DNA from: a virus | Taxonomy: Duplodnaviria; Caudoviricetes | IMG/VR virus record: IMGVR_UViG_3300035498_000371 | Span: 96,001 to 160,000 of that record | Strand: one strand, 5' to 3' | Length of the DNA stretch: 64,000 nucleotides | Shown here: piece after piece, positions 4,837 to 6,659 of the stretch | How positions within the stretch are numbered: position 1 is the stretch's first letter | Layout: every line of letters starts with the position of its first letter | Position numbers and translations under genes: made by a program | The notes under the pieces: generated by a model | Told to the model about the DNA's origin: nothing | Seen by the model: only the letters and a program-made list of their open reading frames with translations | The model's database searches: none

Positions 4837-6048
4837 ATGATTGAATTGGAAGGTAAATATAATTCATGTAAAGTATTTACAGATGATTGCGATACTGCTA
4901 CGATAGGGCAGTTAACAGCATTATTAGATCAAGAAAGTTCTAAAGGAAGTAAGATAAGAATTATGCCAGATTGCCATGCTGGTAAAGGTTCTGTAATTGG
5001 AACAACTATGACGCTCGATAAGTATGTAATACCAAATATCGTTGGAGTAGATATAGGTTGCGGTATGCTCGCTGTTAAACTAAAGAACAAATCAATAGAT
5101 TTACCAGCATTGGATAGTGTAATCCATAAATATGTGCCAAGCGGTTTTGATATTCATGATGAACCAATTGGAGATTCTGATATTGATCAAATATATGCTC
5201 CAGTAAATACAGATAGGGCATATAGAAGTTTAGGAACTCTTGGAGGAGGTAATCATTTTATTGAGGTTGATAAAGACTCTGAAGGATTCTTATGGCTAGT
5301 TATTCATACAGGTTCACGCCATTTAGGTATAGAAGTATGTGATTATTATCAGAATCTTGCATATGAAAATCTCAAAGCTAAGGCTGCAGGTGGAACTTAT
5401 AAAGAGTTATCTGATAAGTTAATAGCTCAGTACAAATCTGAAGGAAGAGAGAAAGAACTCTCTAAAGCATTAGCTGGACTGAAATCAGAATACAAATCTA
5501 ATATAGATATTCCTCAGGCTCTTGCTTATCTTGAAGGTGATAGCATGGAAGCTTACATTCATGATATGAAGTTAGCTCAGGAGCACGCAAGTATTAACCG
5601 TGCTATTATTGCTAAGACTATATTGAAGAAGGCTAAGCTTAAAGAAATTGAACGTTTTGAAACTATTCATAATTATATTGATTGTAATAATATGATTCTT
5701 CGTAAAGGTTCAATATCAGCTCAGGATGAAGAAAGAGTGATAATACCAATGAATATGAGAGATGGTTCTCTTATATGTATAGGTAAAGGAAATCCTGATT
5801 GGAATTATTCGGCGCCTCATGGAGCCGGTAGATTAATGTCTCGTAATGCTGCAAGAGATTCTATTTCAATGAGCGACTTCAAAGAGAGTATGAAAGGCAT
5901 TTATTCTACAAGTGTTAATAAGAGCACAATCGATGAAAGTCCTCAGGCTTATAAACCAATGGATGAAATTATTTCCAATATGGGAGACGCGGTAGAGATT
6001 GTTGATATTATAAAACCAATCTATAACTTTAAGGCTGGAGAAGAATAG
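4837..6048 (+). CDS. rtcB: RtcB family RNA ligase
   Basis: MPDCHAG, GVDIGCG, GGGNHF, HTGSR, HNY, HGAGR, DESPQAYK. Confidence 0.95.
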   Translation: MIELEGKYNSCKVFTDDCDTATIGQLTALLDQESSKGSKIRIMPDCHAGKGSVIGTTMTLDKYVIPNIVGVDIGCGMLAVKLKNKSIDLPALDSVIHKYVPSGFDIHDEPIGDSDIDQIYAPVNTDRAYRSLGTLGGGNHFIEVDKDSEGFLWLVIHTGSRHLGIEVCDYYQNLAYENLKAKAAGGTYKELSDKLIAQYKSEGREKELSKALAGLKSEYKSNIDIPQALAYLEGDSMEAYIHDMKLAQEHASINRAIIAKTILKKAKLKEIERFETIHNYIDCNNMILRKGSISAQDEERVIIPMNMRDGSLICIGKGNPDWNYSAPHGAGRLMSRNAARDSISMSDFKESMKGIYSTSVNKSTIDESPQAYKPMDEIISNMGDAVEIVDIIKPIYNFKAGEE

Positions 6049-6062
6049 AGAAGGAGGTTAGT

Positions 6063-6659
6063 ATGATAGTTCAAATAAGTTCAGGTCAAGGGCCTGCAGA
6101 ATGCGAACTCGCTGTAGTAAAGTTATATAATGCTTTATCAAAAGAGTTCAATGATTTATCTTTAGTACAAAAACATGAAGCCCGCACCAAAGGTTGCTGC
6201 ACTTCAATATTGTTTACTACAGATAATGATCTTTCATTTCTTGAAGGAACGGTTCAATGGATTTGTCAAAGTCCATTTAAACCGCACCACAAACGCAAGA
6301 ATTGGTACGTTGACGTTAGCATAATACCGCAAATGGAAGAAATCTCAACAGAGCAAGATATCCGCTTTGAAAGATTTCACTGTGGCGGCAATGGAGGTCA
6401 AAACGTTAATAAAGTAGAAACAGGAGTAAGACTTACTCATATTCCAACAGGAATTGTAGTAACGTCTACTTCAGAGAGAAGTCAATTACAAAACCGTAAA
6501 GATGCATTAAACAAATTAAATGCAATATTAGCAGCTAAGGCTGTTGATAATAAAGCTAAGCAAACAAATGATGCTTGGAGAGAACACACTAAAATAGTTC
6601 GTGGAAATCCAGTAAGGGTTTACAAAGGCGAAGAATTTAAACTAATGGAGGTAAAGTAA
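6063..6659 (+). CDS. prfH: Peptide chain release factor H (ribosome rescue)
   Basis: QISSGQGPAECELAV, GTVQWICQSPFKPHHKRKNW, GGNGGQNVNK (GGQ), ERSQLQN; adjacent to rtcB. Confidence 0.92.
   Translation: MIVQISSGQGPAECELAVVKLYNALSKEFNDLSLVQKHEARTKGCCTSILFTTDNDLSFLEGTVQWICQSPFKPHHKRKNWYVDVSIIPQMEEISTEQDIRFERFHCGGNGGQNVNKVETGVRLTHIPTGIVVTSTSERSQLQNRKDALNKLNAILAAKAVDNKAKQTNDAWREHTKIVRGNPVRVYKGEEFKLMEVK

Follow-up and report, generated by a model that had tools for sequence, protein, structure and literature searches.

A candidate RtcB-PrfH ribosome rescue-and-repair cassette of mosaic origin in an uncultured AR9/PBS1-like jumbo phage

The 64,000-nucleotide stretch of viral DNA analysed here (the window; bases 96,001-160,000 of the 238,843-bp IMG/VR virus record IMGVR_UViG_3300035498_000371, CheckV completeness 76%) contains an rtcB gene encoding a 3'-phosphate/5'-OH RNA ligase (4837-6048, + strand), followed on the same strand, after a 14-nt spacer, by a prfH gene encoding release factor H (6063-6659, + strand). 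In bacteria, rtcB2-prfH is the ribosome rescue and repair operon (PMC9304027, PMC9223846, PMC13166195). The contig is that of an uncultured jumbo phage of the AR9/PBS1/Staphylococcus S6 kind from gut or rumen bacteria, the host probably being a gut or rumen Lachnospiraceae. The best explanation of the gene pair, which we consider rather probable, is that this AR9/PBS1-like jumbo phage carries a two-gene rescue-and-repair cassette for ribosomes cut in the decoding centre.

The 198-aa PrfH matched profile positions 1-200 of the family model TIGR03072 release_prfH (IPR017509) at 184.8 bits, where 166.65 is the cut-off; the genome search gave 184.1 bits. Residues 2-192 align to residues 3-201 of E. 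coli PrfH 7sa4_8 (E 1e-31) and residues 2-195 to residues 5-208 of the solved PrfH 9mor_A (E 3e-40), and the protein, of about 200 residues and without release-factor domain 1, is colinear with solved PrfH. The GGQ peptidyl-hydrolase motif, invariant in the PrfH alignment, is G111-G112-Q113 in the phage protein (Q122 in E. coli). In the E. coli protein, the pocket for 3'-phosphorylated A1493 was defined by cryo-EM as the loop 7-12, R83, H86, R88 and R189, with H85 touching C1054 (PMC9304027). The phage counterparts are the loop S6-S7-G8-Q9-G10-P11 and, for R83, H85, H86, R88 and R189, the residues K73, H75, H76, R78 and R180. Judged by its sequence, the phage PrfH is an intact member of the PrfH family.

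Members of the PrfH-CT type carry a basic C-terminal tail and are 225-250 aa long, and the short subfamily (EcPrfH-like) acts only on damaged ribosomes (bioRxiv 10.1101/2025.01.09.632186). The phage PrfH has 18 residues beyond the RGNP motif; its end is acidic or neutral, with no basic C-terminal tail, and for this reason it was assigned to the damaged-ribosome-specific short subfamily.

The phage PrfH shares 82% identity with a chromosomal bacterial PrfH (L022), whose gene adjoins uvrA and uvrB and which comes from the same metagenome as a related phage contig (L012). Identity is 79% with the PrfH of an integrative conjugative element (L017-L019) and 74% with that of a bacterial genome assembly (L014). 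In the PrfH tree, the phage protein has L022 as its sister (SH-aLRT 94) and is nested with it among Lachnospiraceae sequences. In the family of the Lachnospiraceae metagenome-assembled genome that bears the locus L023, PrfH passed TIGR03072 in 10 of the 201 genomes sampled (5%). The conjugative element, found on gut metagenome scaffolds from ENA, carries a serine recombinase, RepA_N and a fragment of a type IV secretion system coupling protein, and its rtcB-prfH genes adjoin those of AAA and WYL proteins.

For the 403-aa RtcB, the Pfam family RtcB (PF01139) was matched with an E value of 8e-62 and 210 bits against a gathering score of 27, and phrog_1075 was matched over the full length (E 4e-135). 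The metal-binding and GMP-histidine motifs are present (D45/H47, D72/C75, N139/H140, H157, H278 and H328). The earlier note on this DNA, made from the letters and open reading frames, had reported an intact rtcB directly followed by a prfH with its GGQ, and the TIGR03072 score, the Pfam match and the 14-nt spacer bear this out.

The origin of the ligase differs from that of its partner. With the ligases of the PrfH-linked loci L022, L014 and L017, the phage RtcB shares only 43% identity; its identity is 51-54% with Bacillus phage RtcBs and 68-72% with a family whose RtcBs are about 404 residues long. All five contexts examined for the 404-residue family (L020, L021, L169/170, L171 and L172) are jumbo-phage-like and without PrfH. 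In the RtcB tree, which was rooted on a single RtcB1 (E. coli), the phage RtcB lies within clade A alongside PrfH-less phage RtcBs (SH-aLRT 99), and constraining it into the Lachnospiraceae PrfH-linked subclade was 79 log-likelihood units worse (approximately unbiased (AU) test, p = 0.0005). A sister placement to the whole Bacillota PrfH-linked clade was compatible with the data (AU p = 0.108), and the tree therefore does not settle the deep order of clade A, the PrfH-linked clade B and the Bacillus-phage RtcBs. Similarity to clade A is uniform along the whole protein. After the HTGSR motif, at about residues 177-215, the phage RtcB carries an insert of about 40 residues that is charged and probably helical. 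The RtcBs of L020 and Bacillus phage Deep Blue have this insert too, whereas neither E. coli RtcB1 nor any of the aligned PrfH-linked RtcBs does. RtcB2, the PrfH-coupled ligase, corresponds to SSN cluster 2 of PMC9304027 and is distinguished by ligating cut 30S subunits and not cut tRNA. With the RtcB2 model TIGR03073, the phage RtcB scored 104 bits against a cut-off of 271.8; true Bacillota PrfH-linked RtcBs likewise score 84-116 bits, so that the model does not discriminate outside Proteobacteria and is uninformative on Firmicute ligases.

By its trees, the rtcB-prfH pair is a mosaic whose genes have separate origins, a common history being rejected by the AU test (p = 0.0005). The capture of a whole bacterial rtcB-prfH operon, as pictured in the earlier note, is ruled out here by the incongruent trees, the AU test, the uniform clade-A similarity and the insert; the ligase is of phage type. 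In the comparison with Clostridial operons that the same note had proposed, PrfH nests among Lachnospiraceae and RtcB is excluded from their PrfH-linked subclade. The strains also differ along the locus. Between the window and two further contigs (L012 and L013) over 4837-7040, nucleotide identity was 99.4-99.8% in rtcB, as in the preceding gene orf171, and 96.6-97.2% in prfH and the following gene orf126, and this step in identity suggests that a recombined segment ends at the junction of rtcB and prfH or close to it.

Several further features were observed among the relatives of the phage RtcB. Many near relatives at about 70% identity (e.g., P0148, P0157 and P0163) have 549-562 residues and contain a Hint/intein domain. 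On a 288-kb phage-like contig from the human gut (L021:6001-9797), the same phage-type RtcB is accompanied by a 181-aa protein, an RlaP nucleotidyltransferase and an AAA ATPase, a different RNA-repair partnership. In the RtcB1-rooted tree, clade A and the Bacillus-phage clade, which together make up the phage-type RtcBs, cluster with the Bacillota PrfH-linked ones, and the Bacteroidota PrfH-linked RtcBs are sister to them; the rooting is weak, and on this topology the common phage 'tRNA ligase' may descend from PrfH-coupled ligases.

Both genes belong to the phage. The contig encodes virion structural proteins, a 4181-residue open reading frame and a split RNA polymerase beta' gene (869-2152, - strand) with 30-32% identity to those of AR9/PBS1/S6-type phages, and its G+C content is 34%. 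The same gene order, from the target gene of a diversity-generating retroelement (DGR) through rtcB, prfH and orf126 to the downstream genes, is found in L012 and L013, which come from two further metagenomes (JGI samples 3300035505 and 3300043102), and an identical PrfH protein is present on 7 contigs. The G+C content at third codon positions (GC3) is 0.24 in prfH and 0.21 in rtcB, compared with a mean of 0.28 +/- 0.06 in the other phage genes and 0.475 in the nearest bacterial prfH, to which the phage gene has a nucleotide identity of only 73%. The junctions of rtcB-prfH with the neighbouring phage genes are tight and overlap ribosome-binding sites (RBS). A chimeric assembly or a host fragment, named in the earlier note as what would overturn its reading, is ruled out by the synteny in L012 and L013, the PrfH on seven contigs, the phage-like base composition and the tight junctions, on a contig that carries virion and RNA polymerase genes. 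Among phage strains, dN/dS (the ratio of non-synonymous to synonymous substitution rates) was 0.10 for rtcB and 0.23 for prfH, with small counts, and both genes are under purifying selection in the phage. In the DUF6273 gene (window 2324-3223), 21 non-synonymous changes and 1 synonymous change were found among strains (dN/dS about 5.5), which is consistent with a DGR target.

The pair is not confined to this phage. A survey of phage genomes for prfH beside rtcB, suggested by the earlier note, returned at least five other jumbo phage lineages with RtcB-PrfH pairs in IMG/VR (G001/G002, G003, G006, G008 and G009), on contigs of 271, 292, 288, 178 and 166 kb, the first of which has terminal repeats. 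RtcB lies directly upstream of the PrfH homologue in these phages, with one intervening gene in G006 (the 166-kb contig). CheckV rated G001, G003 and G008 as 100% complete, jumbo-phage RNA polymerase genes were found in all five lineages, and a virion structural protein family that matches no cellular control genome was present in the three contigs checked for it (G006, G008 and G009). The TIGR03072 scores of these PrfHs are above or just below the cut-off, with one exception at 135 bits, and the proteins are 40-55% identical to the PrfH of the window. The ligases of these phages belong to the PrfH-linked clade B, branch at its base or have a clade-B RtcB as best match, which suggests whole-operon capture in those lineages. 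Two large IMG/VR contigs, L124 (376 kb) and L125 (218 kb), encode PrfHs scoring 174 and 237 bits, above the TIGR03072 cut-off, and the 3.5 kb to each side of these genes contain no RtcB; these may be solitary phage PrfHs if the contigs are truly viral.

Among cultured phages, no match to the locus was obtained by megablast against INPHARED, and no convincing PrfH was found in the cultured INPHARED genomes. The tblastn matches to PrfH at 80% query coverage or more were short unannotated contigs named "Bacteriophage sp." or similarly, and those in Lak megaphages had 73% coverage and about 28% identity. The literature search found no paper on a phage PrfH or a phage RtcB-PrfH pair, in agreement with the earlier note, according to which the pair is not known to have been characterised in a phage.

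The sequence around the pair is predicted to form a four-gene unit, orf171-rtcB-prfH-orf126, behind an AR9-type early promoter motif. At the 5' boundary, an intrinsic terminator (4229-4261, + strand; a 15-pair stem with 7 G-C pairs, then a T run) closes the upstream gene (3385-4227). The promoter motif GATAATATATTAT-N6-G (4266-4285, + strand) has its predicted start at G4285; its part ATAATATATTAT-N6-G (4267-4285) directly follows the terminator and agrees with AAATATATATTAT-N6-G(+1), the early consensus established experimentally for AR9 by differential RNA sequencing and primer extension (PMC5312081). Agreement with the consensus extends to 10 of 13 positions, including all of the last 9, and the spacing to G4285 is correct. 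For the core ATATATTAT-N6-G, the window has 4 occurrences where 1.2 would be expected. The + strand of the 239-kb contig has 13, mostly 20-60 nt ahead of an RBS, and at least 10 of them lie no more than 60 nt upstream of one. Since the motif agrees with the AR9 early consensus, is enriched and lies upstream of genes, early expression of the unit is a reasonable expectation, and the operon behind an early motif described in the earlier note is recovered here as a unit bounded by terminators. The first gene of the unit, orf171 (4319-4834, + strand), starts with an ATG at 4319 preceded by an RBS. The last, orf126 (6660-7040, + strand), has a start codon that abuts the prfH stop codon and encodes a protein with a CxxC...CxxC zinc ribbon at its N terminus and an acidic region after it. 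The 3' boundary is a terminator hairpin (7052-7079; an 11-pair stem with 7 G-C pairs) before a convergent gene (7094-7396, - strand).

The flanking genes place the pair within the phage backbone. Homologues of orf126 are few (64-77% identity), and their loci belong to sister jumbo phages, where each lies directly after an orf171 homologue. In L173/L174, the RNA polymerase gene is about 90% identical to that of the window and the order of the DGR-target gene, convergent genes and polyprotein is shared; L175-L178 have the same gene-size pattern as the window. The orf171 homologue of L173 is 43% identical to that of the window and directly abuts the orf126 homologue, and the same direct abutment was found in all three sister lineages (L173/L174, L175/L176 and L177/L178). 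No RtcB or PrfH was found by tblastn in these syntenic loci, which were the parts of the sister genomes searched. Relative to the sister phages, bases 4835-6659 (+ strand), covering rtcB and prfH, would thus be lineage-specific, having been inserted here or else lost by the sister lineages. Since orf171 and orf126 are adjacent without RtcB or PrfH in three sister lineages, they are backbone genes.

Zinc-ribbon partners of such modules have been described by Burroughs and Aravind (PMC6514570). The possibility that orf171 and orf126 are accessory to the module was ruled out by their adjacency in the three sister lineages and by the tail of the orf126 product, which is acidic, not basic. The orf171 family (phrog_3754) has 131 representatives in the protein library, with an invariant D38-C39, a near-invariant H119 and an invariant D130; its profile had no match in PDB or Pfam, and the protein may be a thiol hydrolase. 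For orf126, only weak zinc-ribbon matches were obtained in Pfam.

The proposed function of the cassette can be set out by homology to characterised systems. By analogy with AR9, the virion RNA polymerase would read the cassette and the two backbone genes from the early-type promoter. As in the homologous E. coli and Capnocytophaga systems, an RNase would cut 16S rRNA between A1493 and G1494; PrfH would then enter the A site of the stalled ribosome, where its N-terminal pocket would recognise the new 3'-phosphate end, and its GGQ would release the peptide, so that the ribosome could be split and RtcB could reseal the nick in the free 30S subunit. On this reading, the two proteins are expected to act on host ribosomes and the phage-type RtcB to accept 16S rRNA, and the selective agent would be an rRNA-cutting host defence or the toxin of a competitor. 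Ribosome rescue and repair as a counter-defence is plausible.

A number of points weigh against this reading. The pocket residue R83 is replaced by lysine in the phage protein, a conservative change, yet it is arginine in the nearest bacterial PrfHs. The ligase is, by its tree position and insert, of phage type and outside the PrfH-coupled lineage, and in E. coli RtcB1 cannot stand in for RtcB2 (PMC9304027), so that 16S specificity of the phage RtcB is not to be assumed. Early expression would rest on a motif defined in another phage, AR9. No second RtcB, second release factor, RlaP or Rnl-type ligase was found on the contig, which is 76% complete, and further repair genes may therefore have been missed. 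None of the anti-phage systems known to us cuts the decoding centre, and the candidate hosts were not searched for such a system. The colicin E3 domain PF09000 had no match on the contig, a result of little weight as the control search was equally empty.

Phage RtcBs are generally assumed to reseal tRNAs cut by anticodon nucleases, and the strongest alternative, which is possible and clearly less probable than a joint cassette, is that the two functions are only loosely coupled. RtcB would reseal anticodon-cut tRNAs, and PrfH would clear cut ribosomes alone, freeing tRNA and the 50S subunit without religation of the rRNA, the adjacency of the genes reflecting co-regulation or a permissive insertion site. 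The grouping of the RtcB with PrfH-less phage RtcBs in all five contexts, the insert of about 40 residues that it shares with them, and the L124 and L125 PrfHs, which pass the model with no RtcB nearby, are all in line with such a split. The sole tRNA gene on the 239-kb contig, a tRNA-Lys(UUU) (G000:C1:64001-64073, about 32 kb before the start of the window), is also consistent with pressure from anticodon nucleases; tRNA-Lys(UUU) is the classic target of PrrC-type anticodon nucleases, and the phage copy may be a spare for the cleaved host tRNA. However, the immediate rtcB-then-prfH order with a 14-nt spacer is the arrangement found in nearly all bacterial loci, most other PrfH-bearing jumbo phages have RtcB directly upstream, and rescue without ligation gives little protection in E. 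coli (PMC9304027).

The second alternative, which we regard as improbable, keeps the mechanism and replaces the selective agent: the infected cell would be shielded from the bacteriocins or contact-dependent toxins of its neighbours, not from a host defence, as a host that keeps translating in a dense gut community in which colicin E3-like RNases are exchanged. The known A1493/G1494 cutters are all inter-bacterial toxins, namely ColE3, the CdiA-CT of E. cloacae and E3-like domains (PMC9304027). In gut Firmicutes, the module is carried on the integrative conjugative element L017-L019, and this carriage, together with the sporadic PrfH in the family of the L023 genome (10 of 201), fits a traded counter-toxin trait. 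However, an E3-type toxin was not identified in this community, and as the mechanism is the same as in the rescue-and-repair cassette, sequence data cannot separate the two. An assembly chimera, which is refuted, or a recent non-functional passenger from host DNA, for which the 74-82% identity of PrfH to bacterial proteins could be cited, is very unlikely given the gene order in L012 and L013, the identical PrfH on seven contigs, the phage-like composition, the 73% nucleotide identity to the nearest bacterial gene, dN/dS below 0.25, the tight RBS-overlapping junctions and an RtcB that is not of bacterial type.

If the rescue-and-repair cassette is taken as the working explanation, several implications follow. 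Every rescue-and-repair example that, to our knowledge, has been characterised is bacterial and protects against bacteriocins or contact-dependent toxins. The occurrence of pairs in at least six jumbo phage lineages, the purifying selection and, here, the early-type promoter would mean that cleavage of the decoding centre is common enough in infected cells to favour a viral antidote, and this recurrence hints at an unrecognised class of rRNA-targeting immunity or at toxin traffic in gut communities. A phage-type ligase working with PrfH would, if true, be a natural partner swap, in which case the PrfH-RtcB2 pairing is not obligatory. The mosaic pair also offers a direct comparison on what makes an RtcB ribosome-specific, between the phage-type ligase with or without its insert and the PrfH-linked ligase of the probable donor. 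A more specific and speculative proposal is that the 16S decoding centre is nicked in Lachnospiraceae or other gut hosts of jumbo phages, either by an undescribed anti-phage defence of their own or by a toxin that they commonly meet, that jumbo phages have repeatedly acquired PrfH against it, and that here PrfH was recruited to a phage-type RtcB whose charged insert permits action on both rRNA and tRNA.

Compared with known systems, the phage pair resembles the bacterial rtcB2-prfH operon of the E. coli ATCC 25922/CFT073 type in that prfH follows rtcB on the same strand after a short spacer, and in a PrfH of the short tail-less subfamily with the N-terminal ribosome-recognition domain, the GGQ and the pocket residues. 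It differs in being phage-encoded, behind an early-type promoter and among phage backbone genes, in a ligase from outside the PrfH-coupled lineage and in a PrfH about 30% identical to that of E. coli, with lysine in place of R83. The chromosomal and conjugative-element rtcB-prfH loci of Lachnospiraceae (L022, L014 and L017) are closer in PrfH, at 74-82% identity and with the phage protein nested among theirs, whereas their RtcBs are 43% identical and without the insert and their GC3 is 0.40-0.53 as against 0.21-0.24 in the phage. For the ligase, the closest likeness, in identity level and in the charged insert, is to the phage-type RtcB annotated as 'tRNA-splicing ligase' (phrog_1075; Deep Blue and other Bastillevirinae, L020 and L021). 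The relatives examined have no adjacent PrfH, however, and the RtcB of L021 is paired with RlaP and an AAA protein. The other jumbo-phage RtcB-PrfH pairs (contigs of 166-292 kb) are alike in coming from phages with multisubunit RNA polymerases and in having RtcB upstream of PrfH; their RtcBs are related to clade B, whereas the partners of the window pair are, by their trees, of separate origin.

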